A DNA stretch of 64,000 bases from Micavibrio sp. UBA6145 (GCA_002423205.1 DIUZ01000024.1:199891-263890); one strand, 5' to 3'. Positions 10,578-62,174 are shown, counted from the stretch's first letter. Notes: generated from the letters alone by a model not told the origin. Program-made: numbers and translations.

Positions 10578-11309
10578 TTAAGCCGTAGCAGCTTTCTTCT
10601 TGTCGGCCTTGGGCTCGGCTTCGCCGGCCACGTCCGGGTCACGCAGAACGTAACCGCGGCCCCACACCGTTTCGATGTAATTGAGGCCCGAGGAGGCGTC
10701 TTCGAGTTTTTTGCGGAGTTTGCAGATGAACACGTCGATGATCTTGATCTCCGGCTCATCCATCCCGTTGTAGAGGTGGTTGAGGAATGTTTCCTTGGCA
10801 AGGGTCGTGCCTTTGCGCAGGGCCAGGAGTTCGAGAATGCCGTATTCCTTGCCGGTGAGGTGGACAGGCTTGCTGTCGATATCAACCGTGCGGGAGTCGA
10901 GGTTGACGACCAGGCGGTCGCCGACCTTGATCTGGTTCTGGCTGTGACCTTTCGAGCGGCGGATAATGGCCTGAACGCGCGCCATCAGCTCGCGCTTGTC
11001 GAAGGGTTTGGTCAGGTAATCGTCAGCGCCGAAGCCAAGGCCCTTGATCTTGTTGTCGAGTTCGGCAAGGCCGGACAGGATCAGGATCGGGGTTTCGATT
11101 TTCGCGGCGCGAAGTTTTTTCAGGACGTCATAGCCATCCATGTCGGGCAGCATGAGGTCGAGGATGATGATGTCGTATTCGTAAACCTTGCCGAGATCGA
11201 GGCCTTCTTCGCCAAGATCGGTGGTGTCCACGACGTGACCGTCGGATTTGAGCATCATCTCGATGCTCTTGGACATGGAGCTGTCGTCTTCTACGAGCAG
11301 TACGCGCAT
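10578..11309 (-). CDS. ctrA: Cell-cycle/motility response regulator CtrA (OmpR family)
   Basis: [12 protein letters not shown]...[10 protein letters not shown]...[19 protein letters not shown]...[20 protein letters not shown]...[13 protein letters not shown]. Near-colinear pattern match to CtrA as I recall it from Caulobacter. Confidence 0.9.
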
Positions 11310-23017: not shown

Positions 23018-24322
23018 TTACTCCGTCGGCACGGGAATACCGGCGTCGCCGTATTCCTTTAGCTTGTTGCGCAGGGTGCGGATGGAAATGCCAAGGATTT
23101 TTGCCGCGTGCGTGCGGTTACCCAAAGTGTGATCCAGTGTATCGAGGATCAGGCGGCGTTCGACATCGGCCAGGCTCTGGCCCGCGCCGGCGGCGACCTT
23201 GGACGATGCAGGGGCGGTTGAGGGTTCATCCGATGTGTGGATCGCGTCGGCTTCGATCTCGTCTTCCATCGCGATCAGCACGGCGCGGTGCATGGCGTTT
23301 TCCAGTTCGCGCACGTTGCCGCGCCAGACGGAATTCTGGATTTTGTCGATGGCGGCCCTGGAGAGTTTCTTTTTGGCTACGCCGTTGACGTCGGCATATT
23401 TGTCGGCAAAAAACTGCGCCATTTGCGGCAGGTCGCCCTTGCGCTCGCGCAGGCCCGGCAGGGCGATGTTGACGACGTTGAGGCGGAAATACAGATCTTC
23501 GCGGAACTGGCCGGCCTTGACGGCGTCCAGCATGTGACGGTTGGACGTGGCGATAATGCGTACATTGATTTTAACAGGTTCCTTGCCGCCGATACGGTCG
23601 ATGACGCGTTCCTGAATGGCGCGCAGCAATTTGGCCTGCAGGCTCGGGTGCATTTCCGTGACTTCATCGAGCAGTAATGTGCCGTTGGTGGCTTCCTCAA
23701 ACTTGCCGATGCGCCGCGCGACGGCACCGGTGAAGGCACCCTTTTCGTGGCCGAACAATTCTGATTCCAGTAGGTTTTCAGGAATAGCGGCGCAGTTGAG
23801 CGCGATGAACGGACCGTTTGCACGCTTCGATTTTTTGTGGATGTAGCGCGACATCACCTCTTTGCCGGTACCGGATTCACCGGTGATCAGGATGGTGGCC
23901 TCAGACGGGGCGACCTGGTCGGCCATCTTCACGACCTTTTGCATCGCGGGGTCGGTCGCGATCATGGATGATGATTCTTCCGTGACCGCTTCGATCACGG
24001 CGGCGATCAGGTCGGCATCGGGCGGGAGCGGCACGTATTCTTTCGCGCCCGCTTTGATGGCTTTTACGGCGGCGGTGGAATCCGAGCCCACGCCGCAGGC
24101 GACGACGGGAATTGCAAAGCGTTCTTTCTCAAGATCTTCGATGAATTTGGCGATGTTCTGTTTAACATCGATCATGACCAGATCGGCACCCTTGCCATTG
24201 CGCAATGCGCCCATGGCCTGCAGCGTGTCCTCACAGTGAACGACCTTGGCCCCGCGCTGGAGGGCGATTTTGCCCGCCGCACTGATATGGCCTTCGAGGT
24301 GACCCACGATCATCAAACGCAT
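23018..24322 (-). CDS. flbD: Sigma-54-dependent transcriptional activator FlbD
   Basis: Receiver-like N-terminus (MRLMIVGHLEGHIS...GADLVMIDV), Walker A GESGTGKEV, GAFTGA loop and a Fis-type HTH (AAKILGISIRTLRNKLKEY). Confidence 0.85.
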   Translation of the reverse strand: MRLMIVGHLEGHISAAGKIALQRGAKVVHCEDTLQAMGALRNGKGADLVMIDVKQNIAKFIEDLEKERFAIPVVACGVGSDSTAAVKAIKAGAKEYVPLPPDADLIAAVIEAVTEESSSMIATDPAMQKVVKMADQVAPSEATILITGESGTGKEVMSRYIHKKSKRANGPFIALNCAAIPENLLESELFGHEKGAFTGAVARRIGKFEEATNGTLLLDEVTEMHPSLQAKLLRAIQERVIDRIGGKEPVKINVRIIATSNRHMLDAVKAGQFREDLYFRLNVVNIALPGLRERKGDLPQMAQFFADKYADVNGVAKKKLSRAAIDKIQNSVWRGNVRELENAMHRAVLIAMEDEIEADAIHTSDEPSTAPASSKVAAGAGQSLADVERRLILDTLDHTLGNRTHAAKILGISIRTLRNKLKEYGDAGIPVPTE

Positions 24323-34349: not shown

Positions 34350-34364
34350 TTAATGAATTGTTAA
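34350..34364. promoter_or_regulatory. Canonical CtrA box TTAA-N7-TTAA upstream of the flagellin gene
   Basis: TTAAtgaattgTTAA (minus strand TTAACAATTCATTAA), 79-93 bp upstream of ATG 34271. A GATTC site sits at 34345-34349. Confidence 0.45.
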
Positions 34365-37400: not shown

Positions 37401-37975
37401 GAAGTGGCAGTTTGACGATTCTTATCTTGAGGTTTCACGATAAGGTAAAACTCACCGTGAACGCTCTCCGCAAAAGTTACATCCATGACTTCATTCCACT
37501 TGTCCAGCCACCAGGACGGATGTTCGATGATCAGGTGTGCATTTCTTCCGTCAGGAAGACGGTGAACGGCGGGGACGCATGAAATGACTAAAAACGCAGC
37601 TTTCAGCGTACGGTGGGCAATGTCTGCCATTACGTTGTCAAGAAAACTAGGTTCAATATGTTCCATGACATCTGTGCAGATCAGCAGATCGGCCTGATGC
37701 TTATCGTCAGCTTTCTCAGGAATCGCTGGATCGTATTCGTAAAAGGCTACCTCTTTATAAGGAGAATTCGGTTTTTTTTGTTCTTCTCGGAAAAGTGTGC
37801 CGATCGTGCCCTTGCCGCATCCATAGTCCAGAACTGATTTTGCATCTAGTTCGCCAATAAGTTTTAAAACTGTCTGGTAATGTATCTGGCCGGTATTACC
37901 CCAGGTGTTATCATCCTGGTGTTTTTCCTGGAGCTGAGAGCGGTAATCATCGGACAGTGTCTTGGGCTGGGTCAT
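34463..37975 (-). CDS. Four-module protein: SAM methyltransferase + TPR + GT9-like glycosyltransferase + polysaccharide pyruvyl-transferase-like domain
   Basis: Module 1 (aa ~30-180): VLDYGCGKGTIG and DLLICTDVMEHI. Module 2 (aa ~205-500): TPR-like helical repeats. Module 3 (aa ~500-790): ADQGIGDIIMMMRYVP...DLIISIDNTTVHAAGAMGVPCWTIL, a GT9/heptosyltransferase-like pattern. Module 4 (aa ~800-1170): ...LVISGFHSTCLMSHAAGIPTQPF, a pyruvyl-transferase-like pattern. GC spot counts are 38-45%. Confidence 0.6.
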   Translation of the reverse strand: MTQPKTLSDDYRSQLQEKHQDDNTWGNTGQIHYQTVLKLIGELDAKSVLDYGCGKGTIGTLFREEQKKPNSPYKEVAFYEYDPAIPEKADDKHQADLLICTDVMEHIEPSFLDNVMADIAHRTLKAAFLVISCVPAVHRLPDGRNAHLIIEHPSWWLDKWNEVMDVTFAESVHGEFYLIVKPQDKNRQTATSLPQQTSSAITDPSPNDEITRQAVNLIKQEKFTQARLLLLSIKDFSAAPQALYYLGEISFKNNDLIHAAGHYLEYAQITKDPRAYRKAGIAFSKVENYDAALKCLELEVCQAAFMADGDYREALMLSLVKTLKPGLAIKVYESQATNTPNQTAQYVDALIMNQELQRAETVALNATQEYPQAPEAWSALERAYTALRQFDKALEASAKAAALDPESAVYKCNLGLSYLGNARIDEALACFDEATRLDKLMMAPYLNRSTIHRYKKEYLNLEGDLEKALAVDPLSPDVHYAIGVAALKMEQYPKAFAELEWYWHKAKLTSKRMPESTPRWYGEDISDKTLMFYADQGIGDIIMMMRYVPEIVNRYAPQKLIINVNQKMEALFSVSFPEIFESGKVEFFDPALHTDNTIDLLVAATTLPHIFNTEIDEIPHTDHYLKKDKTLDYKKDSNKEFVVGISWYTKSLDAGYIRSLKLMDFDFLAKYDNIRVIDLQYGDTSAERKDAAEKGFHIFHDDKVDSWTAMQPFMDQIAACDLIISIDNTTVHAAGAMGVPCWTILAQEPFWRWPVSGEATPWYESLRLFRQTQKDYTELFVRVDAEFRKFIAGDKNCIAPRKYQRLFPANSKKKKRAFLINDTGAAFTWGHYASMQGIKSVLEKKNYDVEDLSTIALNWFPVGKPTLQDFDDRRFLAYWRYKNPTLFYAIEQSDQIIINGESMMNGLSDTALYMLYLAYIAKQFFGKKVSIINHSVFPEDKPSLSDPQKLAFYHKVYTKLDACVVRDQISYDILRSINIPCTLGMDTALLWLSDYLESKPKIEKHNTAVITAGPGYTSFYAPVFAKLCLHLREQGLQPTLLKGAQWHLSQEDMMLEKDMSELIGGHFETIDAQSAEQFTATLLGAKLVISGFHSTCLMSHAAGIPTQPFTTGTNVLSFMGIEKMTALSSPIFYEDPSAFRKMDAAIAALRRKENMVKKWTKTAQENLKSY

Positions 37976-38100: not shown

Positions 38101-40068
38101 TTAGCGCAGTCTCAGCAATTCTTCCGTCATCTGGTCGGCGGTCTGAATGATCTTGGTGGCGGCGCTGTAGGAGCGCTGCGTCACGATCATCTTTGTAAAC
38201 TCGTCCGCGATGTCGACGTTAGAGGTTTCAACGGCAGAGCCCTCGACCTGGCCCGCACCACCGTCACCGGCGGCACGAAGGTTGTAAGAGCCGGATTCGG
38301 CCGTCTGGATGTATGCGTTGCCCGATTCTTCACCCAGGCCGTTGACGTTGGTGAACGTCGCGAGCGGGAGCTGGAACAGCGCCGATGTCTGACCGTTCGA
38401 GAAGCGCGCCGTGACGACACCGTCACCGTCGATTTCGATACCGGTACGAAGACCGAGTTCGGCGCCGTTCTGCGTCACCGCAGTCACGTTATACTCACCC
38501 GAGAACTGGGTCAGTGCGCCGATTTCGAAGTTGATGTTCTGCAGGGCCGAACCGTTGCCCCAGTTGATGTTGTTCAACCGTACGGCCTTGCTGCCGGCAA
38601 TGTCTGCCTGACCGTTCAGGGTCCCGTCTTCGTTGAAGTTCATCATCCCGCTGGACAGGATGGTGTTGGTGTCCAGGTCGACCAGGTTCAAATTCCACCA
38701 GCCGAAGGCGTTGGGCGTTTCAGCAAGACCGGCATCCGGGAACTGGGTCGGCTGTGCCGGTGTGGTCGCGGGCGCTGCGGTCATGCCGAGTTTGGTCGCC
38801 AGCGTACCGGAGGTTGCAACCGCGTTGTTGGTGTTGAGTGAAATGATCTTGATTTCGCCGTCTGCACTGAGTTCAGCGCGGGCAAAGCCATCAAGATCGG
38901 TGTTCAACTGGGTCACAAGCTGTTGAACCGTAGTGCCGGCCAGAAGGGTGATAGTAGAGGTGGCCAGGATGGGTGAGCCGACATCAACCGTGATGCTGTC
39001 GCCGGTCACAACCGTGCCGGTACCGTTCAGCACCTGTGCGCGCGTCATCGGAGCGAGCAGGGTCTGGTGGCTGTCGGCACCGTTATAGCTGAAGCCAAGG
39101 GCGTTTGCGCCGCCCGGCAGGCCGTTGGTGACCGGGCCGTTGGTGACGGCGACGGTTTCGTTGTAGTTACGCGCCAGGATCTGGAGCTGACCGGTTGAGC
39201 TCAGCTGCGCCACCGAGTGGAGCTGCAGGTCCGGGTCGTTGTTCACGAAGTCGATCAGGTTACCCATGGTCGATGTCGATGTAACGGTATAGGTCGAATT
39301 ATAGCCGCCAACTGCGATGTTGATGGTATCGCCCACCGCCATGCCGGTGATCGAGGTGAGAAGGGTCGGGCGGGTTGCGCCGCTGCCGCCGATACTGCTG
39401 GTCGCCGTTGCGGTCGGGGTGAACACTTTCGTGAACTGCATTTCGATGTTCTGGCCTTCACCGAGGGAGTCGAACACTTTGAGCGTACGTTTGAAGTCCG
39501 GTGCCGTATTGGCCGGGATCGGGTACGGCGACGGTGATTCAGCGGCGTTCAGGTTGATCGAGAATTCAGCAGCGGTGGTTGCCTTGGTCAGGCCGCCGAG
39601 CAGCGAGACGTTGACGGCCTGGGTCGACGAAATATCGTCGCGGCCTGCGGGCAGCTGACCGTTTTCATCAAGCTTCCAGCCCATCAGGTAGAAACCGGCG
39701 GTGTTGCGCAGGTAACCGTTTGCGTCTTCGCTGAACGAACCGGCGCGGGTAAAGAGTTTTTCCTGCAGACCGGTCGGTGCCTTCTGAACGATCAGGAAGC
39801 CGTTGCCGGAAATGGCGACGTCGGTGGTCGAGTTGGTTTGCTGGAGCGCGCCCTGTGCGTCGATTTTCTGAACCGCACGGGCCAGAACCGAACCGGAGCT
39901 GTATTTTGCGGCACCGGCAGAGGCGGTGACGAGCGATTCAAACGCTGCTTCGCGGCGTTTGTAACCAACGGTGTTCACGTTGGCGATGTTGTTGGAAATC
40001 ATGGAGATCGACTCTGCCTGTGAAGCGAGGGCCGAAACGCCGGTGATGAGTGAGCCGAAAAGTGACAT
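38101..40068 (-). CDS. flgE: Flagellar hook protein FlgE
   Basis: N-terminus SNNIANVNTVGYK and C-terminus MIVTQRSYSAATKIIQTADQMTEELLRLR. AGGAGG Shine-Dalgarno upstream. 655 aa. Confidence 0.95.
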   Translation of the reverse strand: MSLFGSLITGVSALASQAESISMISNNIANVNTVGYKRREAAFESLVTASAGAAKYSSGSVLARAVQKIDAQGALQQTNSTTDVAISGNGFLIVQKAPTGLQEKLFTRAGSFSEDANGYLRNTAGFYLMGWKLDENGQLPAGRDDISSTQAVNVSLLGGLTKATTAAEFSINLNAAESPSPYPIPANTAPDFKRTLKVFDSLGEGQNIEMQFTKVFTPTATATSSIGGSGATRPTLLTSITGMAVGDTINIAVGGYNSTYTVTSTSTMGNLIDFVNNDPDLQLHSVAQLSSTGQLQILARNYNETVAVTNGPVTNGLPGGANALGFSYNGADSHQTLLAPMTRAQVLNGTGTVVTGDSITVDVGSPILATSTITLLAGTTVQQLVTQLNTDLDGFARAELSADGEIKIISLNTNNAVATSGTLATKLGMTAAPATTPAQPTQFPDAGLAETPNAFGWWNLNLVDLDTNTILSSGMMNFNEDGTLNGQADIAGSKAVRLNNINWGNGSALQNINFEIGALTQFSGEYNVTAVTQNGAELGLRTGIEIDGDGVVTARFSNGQTSALFQLPLATFTNVNGLGEESGNAYIQTAESGSYNLRAAGDGGAGQVEGSAVETSNVDIADEFTKMIVTQRSYSAATKIIQTADQMTEELLRLR

Positions 40069-43261: not shown

Positions 43262-43609
43262 TTACTCCCCTGAGTTCATTTTGGATTGCATCTCGATCAT
43301 GGCGCCCTTGATAGAGTCAGCCAGGCCAATGCCGCCCGCTGCCGAGATTTTTTTGCCGTATTCCTGGATCATCATGCTTTTCCATGTCTCTTCCGCCTGA
43401 CCGCCGCCGAATTCGGAATCGGTCGGAATGGTTTCGAACATGGGCTGCATCATTTCGCTGATGAACATGGCTTCGAAGTCCTGGGACGCGGCGTCGATCT
43501 CAGCCATTTTCTTGTCGCTGATCGCGCCCTTGGCTTTTTCAAGCGCAACGTCAACATTGGCCATACGCGCGAAGAACGGGTCGGATGCTGTGAAGATATT
43601 GCCGCTCAT
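43262..43609 (-). CDS. flgJ: Rod-binding protein (FlgJ N-terminal domain only, CheL-like)
   Basis: DFEAMFISEMMQPMF...WKSMMIQEYGKKISAAGGIGLADSI pattern. ATG 43609 overlaps the flgI stop by 1 nt. No muramidase domain (115 aa). Confidence 0.75.
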   Translation of the reverse strand: MSGNIFTASDPFFARMANVDVALEKAKGAISDKKMAEIDAASQDFEAMFISEMMQPMFETIPTDSEFGGGQAEETWKSMMIQEYGKKISAAGGIGLADSIKGAMIEMQSKMNSGE

Positions 43610-44727
43610 CACAGCACCTCGATTTCGGCCTGGAGGGCACCGGCGGCTTTGATGGCCTGCAGAATGGTGATCACATCGCGCGGGGTTACGCCCAGTGCGT
43701 TGAGGCTTGAGACCAGTTCCTGCAGCGTTACGCCTTCGGGCAGGTAGGCAATATTGGCCTGGTCGTTGTCGCCGGTGATGTCGAGGCTGGTGCGCGGGAC
43801 GACGACGGTATCGCCGTTTTCGCTGAACGGTGCAGGTTGCGACACCTGCGGTGTTTCGGTGATGCGCACGGTCAAATTGCCTTGAGCGACGGCAACGGTG
43901 GAGATGCGCACATCGGCACCCATGACGATCACGCCGGAGCGTTCGTCGATCACGATCTTGGCGACCTGATCCGGCTGGATGGTCAGTTGTTCGACATCGG
44001 TAACCAGATCCACCACGGCCTTACCGGCGGGCGGGGTCAGTTTGACGGATGAATTGTTCTCAACCACGGCGACTTTGGAGCCGTATTGCTGGTTGATGGT
44101 GGCGGCGATGCGGCGCGCGGTCGTAAAGTCAGGATTGCGCAGGCCAAGGCGTACGGACGGCAGGGACGCCAGGTCAAAGCCGATTTCTTTTTCAACAATC
44201 GCGCCGTTGGGGACGCGGCCCGCGGTCGGGGTGTTCTGGGTCACGCCGCCGGCATCGCCGGATGCGGTGAAGCCGGACACGGTCACGGGGCCCTGGGCAA
44301 CAGCATAGACTTCAGAGTCGCCGCCCATAAGCGGGGTGACCAGAAGCGTGCCGCCCTGCAACGACTTGGCATCGCCCAGGGTGGATACGTTGACGTCGAT
44401 ACGGCTGCCCTGATTGGTGAAGGGGGGCAGGGTGGATGTCACCATGACGGCGGCGACGTTGCCGGTGTTCAGGTTCTGGTCGCGGACGTTGACGCCAAGG
44501 CGTTCAAGCATGGCGGTGAGGGATTGTTTGGTGAATGGGGCGTTGCCCAGCTTGTCGCCAGTACCGTTCAGGCCGACAACAAGGCCGTAACCGATCAGCA
44601 TGTTTTCGCGCACGCCTTCGACGTCCACGATGTCCTTGATACGGGACGGACCCTCAGCCGATGCGGTGCCGGCGAAACCGAGACCGAAGAGAGCGATGGC
44701 CGTCAAAGTAAGGGCTTGTATGCGCAT
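43609..44727 (-). CDS. flgI: Flagellar P-ring protein FlgI
   Basis: Signal peptide, then SRIKDIVDVEGVRENMLIGYGLVVGLNGTGD. 372 aa. Confidence 0.95.
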   Translation of the reverse strand: MRIQALTLTAIALFGLGFAGTASAEGPSRIKDIVDVEGVRENMLIGYGLVVGLNGTGDKLGNAPFTKQSLTAMLERLGVNVRDQNLNTGNVAAVMVTSTLPPFTNQGSRIDVNVSTLGDAKSLQGGTLLVTPLMGGDSEVYAVAQGPVTVSGFTASGDAGGVTQNTPTAGRVPNGAIVEKEIGFDLASLPSVRLGLRNPDFTTARRIAATINQQYGSKVAVVENNSSVKLTPPAGKAVVDLVTDVEQLTIQPDQVAKIVIDERSGVIVMGADVRISTVAVAQGNLTVRITETPQVSQPAPFSENGDTVVVPRTSLDITGDNDQANIAYLPEGVTLQELVSSLNALGVTPRDVITILQAIKAAGALQAEIEVL

Positions 44728-44752
44728 GGTATTCCTTTCCGGGAATTACCTT

Positions 44753-44768
44753 TGCGAGAAGCGTGCCA
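44753..44768 (-). promoter_or_regulatory. Sigma-54 promoter of the flgI operon
   Basis: Minus strand reads TGGCAC-gcttc-TCGCA (GG-N10-GC). The -12 element lies ~26 bp upstream of ATG 44727, with a GGAAAGGA Shine-Dalgarno between. Confidence 0.65.
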
Positions 44769-44808
44769 AGTCCGGCCTGCCCACGAGTCGTGGGTATCCC
44801 GGACTTGG
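44766..44808. repeat. Nested inverted repeat: CCAAGTCCGG-4-CCCACGA-g-TCGTGGG-4-CCGGACTTGG
   Basis: Read directly. The centre is a GAGTC site (44785-89). The left arm overlaps the -24 element of the flgI promoter. Confidence 0.75.
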
Positions 44809-44816
44809 TTTGTTGA

Positions 44817-44834
44817 TGCCTGCTATCGCAGGCA
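44817..44834. repeat. Inverted repeat TGCCTGC-tatc-GCAGGCA
   Basis: 7-bp arms read directly. Lies ~50-65 bp upstream of the flgI sigma-54 -24 element. Confidence 0.7.
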
Positions 44835-44836
44835 CC

Positions 44837-44880
44837 CCCCGCATAATATGGCCGCCCCACCAACCCCATATTATGCGGGG
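44837..44880. repeat. Perfect 15-bp-arm inverted repeat CCCCGCATAATATGG-N14-CCATATTATGCGGGG
   Basis: Read directly. Followed by a duplicated GGGGACCCC / GGTGGGG motif (44877-44911) and the fliX ATG at 44945. Confidence 0.8.
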
Positions 44881-44944
44881 ACCCCTATATAAGGTGGGGA
44901 CCCCGGTGGGGTTGTTCTTGAAGTCTTAAGGCTTTGGCCAGACA

Positions 44945-45397
44945 ATGAAGCCCATGAGAATTGAAGGGCCTCGGTCCACTTCCGACGTTAAAAAGTCCGA
45001 CAAGGCCCGCAAATCCGGCGGGACAGGCGGCGCGTTCAGTGCCTTTCTGGATGAAGGCGGGGCGGAAACCGCCCCCCCGGCGCGGGGTGCAGCGCCCATG
45101 GGTGGTATTGGCAATCTTCTCGCCGTGCAGGGTGCGGATGATCCGACCGAGGGCAGAAAACGTAAAAAGATGATGGAGCGGGCGGACAAGGTCCTGACCG
45201 CGCTGGACGGCGTGCACCGGGGGCTGGTGAACGGCGACCTGTCGACCGTCCAGATGGACGAGGTTGGCCGCGCCGTGCGCGAAAACCGCGAAAATATCAA
45301 TGATCCCAGATTGTTGGCGATTCTGGACGAGGTGGATTTGCGGGCCCAGGTGGAGCTTGCCAAGCTCGAAATGGCCCGCGATAAAGCCAAATCATAA
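44945..45397 (+). CDS. fliX: Class II flagellar assembly regulator FliX
   Basis: Divergent from flgI as in Caulobacter. C-terminus DPRLLAILDEVDLRAQVELAKLE matches the FliX family pattern. Confidence 0.75.
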   Translation: MKPMRIEGPRSTSDVKKSDKARKSGGTGGAFSAFLDEGGAETAPPARGAAPMGGIGNLLAVQGADDPTEGRKRKKMMERADKVLTALDGVHRGLVNGDLSTVQMDEVGRAVRENRENINDPRLLAILDEVDLRAQVELAKLEMARDKAKS

Positions 45398-61313: not shown

Positions 61314-61675
61314 GTGATTTTGTCCTTTTCCATTTCGGCCATGAGGACCGCGTCGAACGGGTTGGGTTCGCCGTTGGCCTGATAGACATAGGCCAGGATT
61401 TCCCCGACTGCCATCAGGGCCTCGGTCGGGATGGGGGAGTCGAGTTCGAACTGGGCCAGCATCTCGGCCAGATTGGCGTCTTCGCGGACCTTTACGCCAT
61501 TGGCGTAGGCGATTTCCAGGATCTGGCGGGCAATTTCGCCACGGCCGGCGGCGGTAATTTCCGGCACTTTGCCGATGGCGGACCGGTCGCGCAGGGCGAC
61601 GGCTGTGGCCCTGGTTGAAATTGCCTGCGCATTCAACGGGTTAAGTGGGTCTTCGTCTTCGGGTAGGTTTGGCAC
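61310..61675 (-). CDS. Stand-alone FlhB C-terminal-domain-like protein (EscU/YscU/FlhB family, no TM region, no NPTH)
   Basis: AVALRDRSAIGKVPEITAAGRGEIARQILEIAYANGVKVREDANLAEMLAQFELDSPIPTEALMAVGEILAYVYQ parallels the FlhB segment just after the NPTH autocleavage site. GTG start at 61675. Confidence 0.7.
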   Translation of the reverse strand: MPNLPEDEDPLNPLNAQAISTRATAVALRDRSAIGKVPEITAAGRGEIARQILEIAYANGVKVREDANLAEMLAQFELDSPIPTEALMAVGEILAYVYQANGEPNPFDAVLMAEMEKDKIT

Positions 61676-61685
61676 GGTTTTCGCA
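61670..61685 (+). promoter_or_regulatory. Sigma-54 promoter of the flgB-flgC-fliE operon
   Basis: TGGCAC-ggttt-TCGCA (GG-N10-GC), 40 bp upstream of ATG 61725. Same -24/-12 words as the flgI promoter. Overlaps the GTG start of the divergent FlhB-C-like ORF. Confidence 0.65.
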
Positions 61686-61724: not shown

Positions 61725-62174
61725 ATGACAATGCTCAGTGGAATTGGCCTTTTCAAAGGCATTATGTCGAAGATGGACTGGCTTGACCAGAACCAGCGCG
61801 TTCTTTCGCAAAACATAGCGAACGCGGACACGCCGGGTTATCAGCCCAAATCGCTGAAAGAAGCCGACTTTAAATCATTGATGGGGTCGACCGCATCCGG
61901 CGGCAGTAAGGGCAGCGCCCCGCAACTGGCCCTGACACCGGTCCGCCTTGAGGGTACGAATGCCATGCATTTCGGCGTGAAAGAGGGCGAGAAAGTCTCG
62001 GCCGAAGCCAAAGCACAAAAAACCACTTATGAAGCCAGCCCGGATGACAACAGCGTGGTTCTGGAAGAACAGCTGTTCAAAGCCAACCGTAATTCGATGG
62101 ATTACCAGCTGGCCACCAACCTCTATCGCCGCAATGTGGGCATGCTGCGCATGGCTCTCGGCCGTAACGGATAA
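61725..62174 (+). CDS. flgB: Proximal rod protein FlgB
   Basis: VLSQNIANADTPGYQPK N-terminal rod motif. 149 aa, first gene of flgB-flgC-fliE. Confidence 0.9.
   Translation: MTMLSGIGLFKGIMSKMDWLDQNQRVLSQNIANADTPGYQPKSLKEADFKSLMGSTASGGSKGSAPQLALTPVRLEGTNAMHFGVKEGEKVSAEAKAQKTTYEASPDDNSVVLEEQLFKANRNSMDYQLATNLYRRNVGMLRMALGRNG

Follow-up and report, generated by a model that had tools for sequence, protein, structure and literature searches.

A palindrome-rich, lineage-restricted segment between the divergent flagellar genes flgI and fliX of Micavibrio sp. UBA6145, and a hairpin that it shares with phage contigs

The divergent flagellar genes flgI and fliX of Micavibrio sp. UBA6145 are separated by a 217-nt gap crowded with inverted repeats, whose nature is considered here. 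The gap occupies positions 44728-44944 of a 64,000-nt stretch of DNA (GCA_002423205.1 DIUZ01000024.1:199891-263890), which is called the window and in whose coordinates positions are given unless another locus is named. A preliminary description had identified the two genes, an assignment that strong Pfam and NCBIfam matches corroborate; it had also reported three consecutive inverted repeats in the gap, and had suggested that they act as enhancers or operators for the regulator FlbD, as RNA structure in a fliX leader, or as an element resembling repetitive extragenic palindromes (REPs). The genes are as follows.

43609-44727, minus strand: flgI, encoding the flagellar P-ring protein (Pfam FlgI, 3.8e-138; also NCBIfam FlgI)
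44945-45397, plus strand: open reading frame (ORF) of fliX, with a likely true start at ATG 44954 (Pfam FliX, 5.4e-35)

A flagellar hierarchy of the Caulobacter type is plausible because the window encodes both FlbD (23018-24322; 712 bits to the FlbD model) and CtrA (10578-11309); the regulatory logic of CtrA, FlbD-FliX and sigma-54 in Caulobacter has been reviewed (PMC3930126, PMC3096577). The locus resembles the fliX-flgI unit of Caulobacter crescentus in its divergent genes and in the sigma-54 promoter of flgI, with FlbD, FliX and CtrA all in the window; it differs in that the gap has no repeat like that of the enhancer (ftr) sites (GGCA-N5-TGCC type), and in that its inverted repeats are an addition missing in sister lineages. 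A genome scan for FliX led to one distant locus only and to no close reference genome; the relatives used here are flgI-fliX loci gathered from metagenomes and assemblies (designated by L numbers), of which about 45 gaps were compared, 40 of them in the first set. The divergent order of the two genes is retained in every relative locus collected. The window forms part of a 188-kb metagenomic contig, JGI 3300001605, and a second sample has an identical gap.

All three of the reported inverted repeats (IR1 to IR3) are present, and they divide into the following modules.

44766-44808: IR1, a nested palindrome, CCAAGTCCGG / cctg / CCCACGA g TCGTGGG / tatc / CCGGACTTGG
44780-44794: IR1 inner core CCCACGAgTCGTGGG, common to the window, L004 and L009
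44766-75 / 44799-808: IR1 outer arms, 10 nt each, specific to the window
44817-44834: IR2, TGCCTGC-tatc-GCAGGCA, with 7-4-7 geometry
44837-44880, plus strand: IR3, the C-loop hairpin, with perfect 15-nt arms (44837-44851 / 44866-44880) around the 14-nt loop CCGCCCCACCAACC (44852-44865)
44864-44914: tandem 19-nt duplication of the IR3 right arm plus G/C-rich words (copies 44864-82 and 44883-901; repeat D1, 79% identity)

The words said to be duplicated 3' of IR3 were confirmed as well (GGGGACCCC at 44877-85 and 44896-904; GGTGGGG at 44893-99 and 44905-11). The 21-nt arms of IR1 are 86% complementary and its DNA hairpin has a folding energy of -17.5 kcal/mol; as the preliminary description had it, IR1 is centred on GAGTC (44785-44789) and overlaps the -24 element of the flgI sigma-54 promoter, with 3 nt shared with the promoter motif. 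The repeats are far beyond chance. Among the 55 local inverted repeats of the window IR1 ranks first (the longest) and IR3 sixth, and the entire gap folds with z scores of -7.0 (plus strand) and -5.5 (minus strand), equalled by none of 200 shuffles; folded as single DNA modules, IR1, IR2 and IR3 score z = -7.1, -5.3 and -5.3, and the G/C-word segment folded alone is unexceptional (z = -0.6). Within the 64-kb window, no second copy came from a search for the IR1 and IR3 arms (up to three mismatches), from BLAST with the inserted segment described below, or from a covariance model, and a pattern scan of the window found no other IR2-like site with equal spacing.

Set against these repeats are shorter elements that are conserved among relatives.

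44768-44753, minus strand: flgI sigma-54 promoter TGGCACGCTTCTCGCA (-24 GG / -12 GC), 10/11 consensus positions, 25 nt before the flgI ATG
44784-44790, plus strand: conserved CGAGTCG (a GANTC site), matching the GcrA-box consensus YGAKTCG
44914-44946, plus strand: putative fliX promoter with the GTTCTTGAAGTCTTAAG box; -35 TTGAAG at 44918-23, 17-nt spacer, -10 GACAAT at 44941-46

Sigma-54 promoters were recognized as TGGCAC-N5-TTGCW, with GG and GC 10 nt apart, upstream of a gene; that of flgI reads TGGCAC-N5-TCGCA, and an equivalent motif stands upstream of flgI in 40/40 related loci of the first set fetched, so that the promoter proposed earlier is real by motif and by conservation. It would place the flgI transcription start at about 44742. 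A small inverted repeat, GGTATTCC...GGGAATTACC (44728-44750), spans the flgI Shine-Dalgarno region and resembles repeats found in L070 and L072; half of it precedes this presumed start.

The GAGTC at the centre of IR1 proves to be a conserved site in its own right. YGAGTCG follows GTGCCAA (the -24 element) at a distance of exactly 15 nt in the window, L004, L061/L065, L073 and L076, and of 25 nt, one helical turn more, in L009, while the bases between the two differ completely among lineages; it is around this site that the inner palindrome of IR1 has been elaborated. CGAGTCG fits the published GcrA-box consensus, YGAKTCG (PMC9976885), and GANTC is under-represented in the window (139 observed vs 238 expected), as with GcrA/CcrM sites elsewhere. 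GcrA, however, acts with sigma-70, whereas the predicted GcrA-box-like site is at a fixed distance from the sigma-54 promoter but at a distance from the fliX promoter that varies among lineages. The window has 13 YGAKTCG sites (for example at 44784, 49788, 30784, 29248 and 19937/19917), about half of them intergenic when mapped onto the ORF table; one of the 13, a CGACTCG some 75 nt upstream of the flgF sigma-54 promoter, is oriented as its counterpart at flgI is.

On the fliX side, a box of the form GTTCTTGA-N-TTCTTAAG, then GA(C/G)AAT, then 7 nt and the ATG, recurs across the clade (at least 78% FlgI identity), with the promoter elements conserved in the window, L065, L004, L062, L073, L009, L070 and L071; it probably acts as a promoter of the sigma-70/CtrA type. 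The CtrA box TTAA-N7-TTAA does not occur at the fliX promoter, which reads TTCT-N7-TTAA, and the sole exact copy in the window is at 34350; LexA boxes (GTTC-N7-GTTC) and exact CtrA boxes were both rejected there for unsuitable spacing. The longest ORF opens at ATG 44945, a codon that overlaps the -10 GACAAT, and a second ATG lies 9 nt downstream at 44954, 7 nt after the -10; FliX homologues all begin MRIEGP, which matches the protein begun at 44954 (MRIEG in the window), and ATG 44945 is probably a mis-called start. Because the -10 ends 7 nt before the conserved ATG, the fliX mRNA would be leaderless or nearly so, and because this promoter lies downstream of all the repeats, they stand upstream of both promoters in DNA that is probably untranscribed. 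Inside the 5' end of fliX, at 45006-45022, CCCGCAAATCCGGCGGG forms a weak 5-7-5 inverted repeat whose form CCCGCAAAA-N-GGCGGG recurs in many relatives; a displaced enhancer or conservation of RKSGG codons could account for it.

The repeats, by contrast with the promoters, come and go among relatives. In L061 and L065, two independent assemblies with FlgI 99% identical and flanking DNA at 92-95% nucleotide identity to the window, the gap is only 100 bp long; the BLAST alignment to them breaks exactly at 44769|44910, between which they have an unrelated 25 nt that keeps GAGTCG only. The segment so defined, and the state of the gap in other loci, are:

44770-44909: lineage-restricted palindrome-rich segment of about 140 bp, holding the IR1 outer arms, IR2, IR3 and the G/C words
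L070, L071 (outgroups): gap 83-85 bp, with 12-15 nt between the -24 element and the fliX box, the promoters nearly back-to-back
L066, L005, L006, L073: gap short, with none of the repeats
L004 (FlgI 90%): gap 203-212 bp depending on the fliX start chosen, with IR2 and IR3
L062-64 (FlgI 91%): gap 174-183 bp depending on the fliX start chosen, with a degenerate IR3 core and a palindrome of their own at the -24 element
L008, L074: gap long, the slot being filled by palindromic inserts of unrelated sequence

In trees of FlgI and FliX the element has a scattered distribution within the clade: the window, L004 and L062 have it, and L061/L065 and L073 do not. An ancestral gain followed by loss in L061/L065 would be the simplest reading of this distribution, with repeated gain as the alternative, given the few lineages available. 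Most flgI-fliX gaps have no hairpin at all, and the idea that hairpins are a general feature of such gaps was dropped. The slot between the -24 element and the fliX promoter looks nevertheless like a hotspot for hairpin DNA, and it turns over quickly: the window has tandemly duplicated the IR3 right arm, of which the 19-nt unit is single-copy in L004 and L062, and of the 7 differences that separate L062 from L064 in 1180 nt, 6 are packed into 17 nt of the palindrome adjoining the -24 element. This cluster (L062:2877-2893 vs L064:257-273, in assemblies about 99.4% identical) looks like a multi-nucleotide, template-switch-like event. The insert of L008 (L008:1119-1334) contains the REP-like GGGTGAGGGGCCTTT-N13-AAAGGCCCCTCACCC and CCCTCTCCCGTAAGGGGAGAGGG, and that of L074 (L074:2812-3000) is palindromic too. 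BLAST of the window's insert and of the hairpins against plasmids and GenBank phages gave nothing useful.

Where the segment is carried, parts of it are constrained. At four-fold degenerate sites the window and L004 are identical at a fraction of 0.64 in flgI and 0.53 in fliX, and yet 25/26 positions of the IR2 block, 24/25 of the IR1 inner block and 14/14 of the IR3 loop are identical between them; since this is far above the identity at four-fold sites, the IR1 core, IR2 and the loop of IR3 are more than neutral sequence in those lineages in which they occur. IR2 is absent from all the other loci compared. The arms of IR3 differ between the window and L004 at seven positions, which amount to three compensatory pair changes and one C-A mismatch.

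The core of the IR3 loop also matches exactly in uncultured viral contigs, where it is again the loop of a hairpin. These copies form a family with a near-invariant 14-nt C-rich loop and a stem of 13-15 bp that keeps its pairing and not its sequence. Members were defined by a 13-14 nt loop CCGCC-N2-3-CCAACC closed by GG/CC, a definition that covers the window's loop; CCGCCCCACCAACC is identical to the loop of 16 other aligned copies. In the 17 aligned copies paired positions make up 84.7% of cells, a share that falls to 56% in shuffles and does not exceed 52% in slid controls, and 13/15 stem pairs show compensatory change. A fairer test, because the aligned copies were chosen for their stems, is a control word: the 16-mer GCCGCCCCACCAACCC occurs at 39 distinct IMG/VR sites, 14 of which have at least 11/15 flanking base pairs with stems that are all different, whereas a control 16-mer of the same composition has such stems at 0/102 sites. 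A covariance model of the family (R1) finds IR3 as its sole match in the 64 kb of the window (59.2 bits, E 5e-12; 15/15 pairs formed), scores L004 at 61 bits and L062-64 weakly at 17 bits, has no match at E<=1 in the other bacterial loci of the first scan, and has one weak match only, in L045 (15 bits, E 0.75), in a separate 250 kb of flagellar loci; in phage contigs it finds further diverged copies, up to four per 13 kb. Variants of the loop include CCGCCACGCCAACC, CCGTCCCGCCAACC and CCGCCGACCAACC, and a stem foot CCCCGC...GCGGGG followed by N and CCC(C) is common to many copies, including those of the window, L004 and L062; the GGGG-N-CCC(C) foot is common in phage copies.

The phage copies sit between co-directional genes in structural operons of several kinds of uncultured high-GC phages. 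Four of them stand directly after the major capsid gene of HTVC010P-like podoviruses, and others are in unrelated phage types. The C-loop strand is gene-sense in nine phage copies and antisense in four, and T-runs follow few of them, most having no U-tract. Hairpins and terminators are familiar downstream of phage major capsid genes, as at the T-phi position of T7, and T4-type phages have mobile promoter/stem-loop cassettes. The family resembles these in its four copies immediately after the capsid gene and in its hairpins at several gene junctions of one genome; it is unlike them in that most copies have no U-tract, about a third are antisense to the flanking genes, and the 14-nt loop is kept across unrelated phage types and a bacterial flagellar locus. 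The hairpin family is undescribed: Rfam has no family for the window at the gathering threshold (near the gap, sub-threshold noise only) and nothing at the hairpins in six phage loci, permissive thresholds included, and a literature search for the loop sequence gave irrelevant matches only.

Within the family, two hairpins at L109:5565-5642 are in opposite orientation and share one arm (arm, C-loop, arm, G-loop, arm), an arrangement like that of bacterial interspersed mosaic elements (BIMEs) or of a switch. Four C-runs are kept in all inspected loop variants except the low-scoring copy at L109 4088-4137, and the other strand of the loop, GG-N-GG-N-GG-N-GG, resembles formers of two-tetrad G-quadruplexes or i-motifs. 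A Chi-like reading of GTTGGTGG on the canonical G strand was rejected, as loop variants do not retain GTTGGTGG, and so was a pseudoknot between the loop and the downstream GGTGGGG words, for which loop complements show no enrichment (mean 5.2 nt vs 5.5 nt in controls).

Taken together, these results lead us to favour, at somewhat better than even confidence, a gap made of a conserved regulatory core and an inserted, lineage-restricted, palindrome-rich segment of about 140 bp, in which IR3 is a dispersed hairpin shared with phages. The core would comprise the flgI sigma-54 promoter, the YGAGTCG site that precedes its -24 element by 15 nt, and the promoter of fliX abutting ATG 44954. IR3 would be one copy of a generic structural hairpin and not an FlbD site specific to the flagellum; hairpins of its family may form a boundary, a stabilising or a terminator-like structure on DNA or on transcripts, with the exposed loop perhaps read by a host or phage factor. 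Local template switching and tandem duplication seem to have produced the outer arms of IR1 and the G/C words, and at most the insert would space or insulate the divergent promoters. The segment is judged dispensable for basic control of flgI and fliX because sister lineages manage without it and the promoters of outgroups are 12-25 bp apart, and the repeats are unlikely to be core flagellar switches because relatives lack the insert and the IR3 family lies between phage genes.

Several points weigh against this account. IR2 (at about -84) and IR3 (at about -117) occupy the usual positions of sigma-54 enhancers; constraint is evident from how well L004 and the window agree in IR2, the core of IR1 and the loop of IR3, so that a dispensable segment need not be a functionless one where it is carried; the family alignment was selected for stems, a bias that the control 16-mer offsets only partly; the missing U-tracts and the mixed orientation (9 sense/4 antisense) leave a terminator role not established; the few lineages do not distinguish ancestral insertion and loss from repeated gain; and the copy count for this organism rests on 64 kb.

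The main rival holds that IR2, and perhaps the IR1 core and IR3, are lineage-specific sites at which FlbD or another dimeric regulator activates flgI or represses fliX. We regard it as unlikely, although the positions of about -45, -84 and -117 from the presumed flgI start, of which the latter two agree with ftr sites (some 80-150 bp from a sigma-54 promoter) in position only, the presence of FlbD and CtrA in the window, the near-identity of the IR2 block in L004 (25/26, against 0.53-0.64 at four-fold sites) and the classical dimer-site geometry of IR2 (7-4-7) all speak for it. The FlbD proposal of the preliminary description found no support in the comparison. The repeats are missing from the 92-95%-identical sisters and from all outgroups: L061/L065, L073, L070/71, L066 and L005/6 have none of them and all keep the sigma-54 promoter. 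The ftr form is taken as GGCA-N5-TGCC, a repeat type that is also seen in distant flgI-fliX gaps; judged by this working consensus, none of IR1-3 has that form and the nearest pattern in the gap has three mismatches. The arms of IR3 covary, and its phage homologues lie in non-flagellar contexts. Nor do the repeats recur upstream of the three other sigma-54 promoters of the window:

49721-49706, minus strand: sigma-54 promoter upstream of flgF
40991-40976, minus strand: sigma-54 promoter inside the 3' end of the hook-length gene, upstream of flgD
61670-61685, plus strand: sigma-54 promoter upstream of the ORF at 61725

No word of at least 8 nt is common to the regions upstream of at least 3/4 of the window's sigma-54 promoters, and no second IR2-like site turned up there, though the ftr-like and IR2-like pattern scans are uninformative for a common FlbD motif. 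As the promoters were ancestrally 12-25 bp apart in the clade, any FlbD enhancer must lie elsewhere. A 13-mer of the ftr-like form GGCA-N5-TGCC, GGCAATGTCTGCC, occurs at 37616-37632 and 38596-38612, about 1 kb apart, within flgE and within the next gene downstream; the two copies are possible FlbD sites, a repeated 13-mer alone not being significant in 64 kb.

Less probable still is a transcribed RNA element, whether a structure in the fliX 5' leader or a small RNA made from the hairpins. In its favour are a highly stable fold, a C-loop strand of IR3 that coincides with the sense strand of fliX, and phage copies that lie in transcribed intergenic regions, mostly in gene sense; but the conserved fliX promoter is downstream of every repeat, its -10 ending 7 nt short of the ATG, and this leaves the suggested leader structure unsupported. 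No sigma-70-like promoter or intrinsic terminator was found in 44400-45300, where IR3 is followed by ACCCCTATATAAGG with no U-tract; Rfam offers no match, both strands fold about equally well, and an attempt to assign the strand by G-U (in DNA, G-T) against A-C mismatches gave no signal (6 vs 10). A comparably low probability attaches to a classical multi-copy selfish repeat (REP/BIME, REPIN or miniature inverted-repeat transposable element) that landed in the gap. An insertion that is polymorphic among close lineages, a weakly matching direct repeat at the two junctions (TTGGTTTGTT at 44805 vs GGGGTTGTT at 44908), the textbook REP-like palindromes of L008 in the same slot and the arm-sharing, oppositely oriented pair of L109 are what such an origin would produce, and REPs, BIMEs and REPINs are likewise intergenic GC-rich hairpins that are present or absent between close lineages and occasionally form head-to-head pairs sharing an arm. 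In REPs, however, the stem is conserved and copies number hundreds per genome, whereas in the C-loop family the loop is conserved and the stem varies between copies, the 64 kb contain a single copy, and phage contigs account for most of those known; there is no second arm copy in the window, no plasmid match, no GTAG-type flank and no clear terminal inverted repeat or target-site duplication, and further bacterial matches at E<=1 in the loci searched are limited to the weak homologous copies of L062-64 and to the weak one of L045. Of the options first proposed the REP-like one nevertheless comes closest, for IR3 only: occurrence at unrelated intergenic sites, set beforehand as the mark of a generic repeat, was found for IR3 at phage gene junctions, although IR3 has no second copy within the 64 kb and not the conserved stem of a classical REP. 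Finally, it is very improbable that the whole is a neutral by-product of local template switching or slippage with no functional module. The 6 substitutions in 17 nt between L062 and L064, the window-only outer arms of IR1, the tandem 19-nt duplication and the differing palindromes in the same slot of L062, L074 and L008 are of that character; the constraint that comparison of the window with L004 reveals on the IR2 block, the IR1 core and the loop of IR3, and the retention of one loop across unrelated phage copies, are not.

A more ambitious possibility, which we hold to be unlikely, is that the C-loop hairpin is a new class of element, read by a trans-acting factor and shared by Alphaproteobacteria and phages, which has here been recruited to insulate class II fliX from the class III sigma-54 promoter of flgI. 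An insulator of this kind would be kept by selection, because the loop is invariant and the stem is repaired by compensatory changes; candidates for its action are a factor-dependent boundary or terminator, or a cruciform with i-motif-like or G-quadruplex-like loop caps.

On the favoured account of a conserved core with an optional insert, the flgI and fliX promoters of this clade were ancestrally back-to-back, the conspicuous palindromes are an addition, and searches for FlbD enhancers should consequently look elsewhere, for example inside fliX; a regulatory role is better sought in the conserved YGAGTCG at -45 than in the palindromes. IR3 for its part reveals an undescribed hairpin family with members in several unrelated types of phage and in the promoter region of at least one bacterial locus, and the near-invariant loop on a strongly covarying stem implies a factor that reads the loop. 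Such a factor, if identified, could reveal a new way in which phages and their hosts punctuate transcription units.

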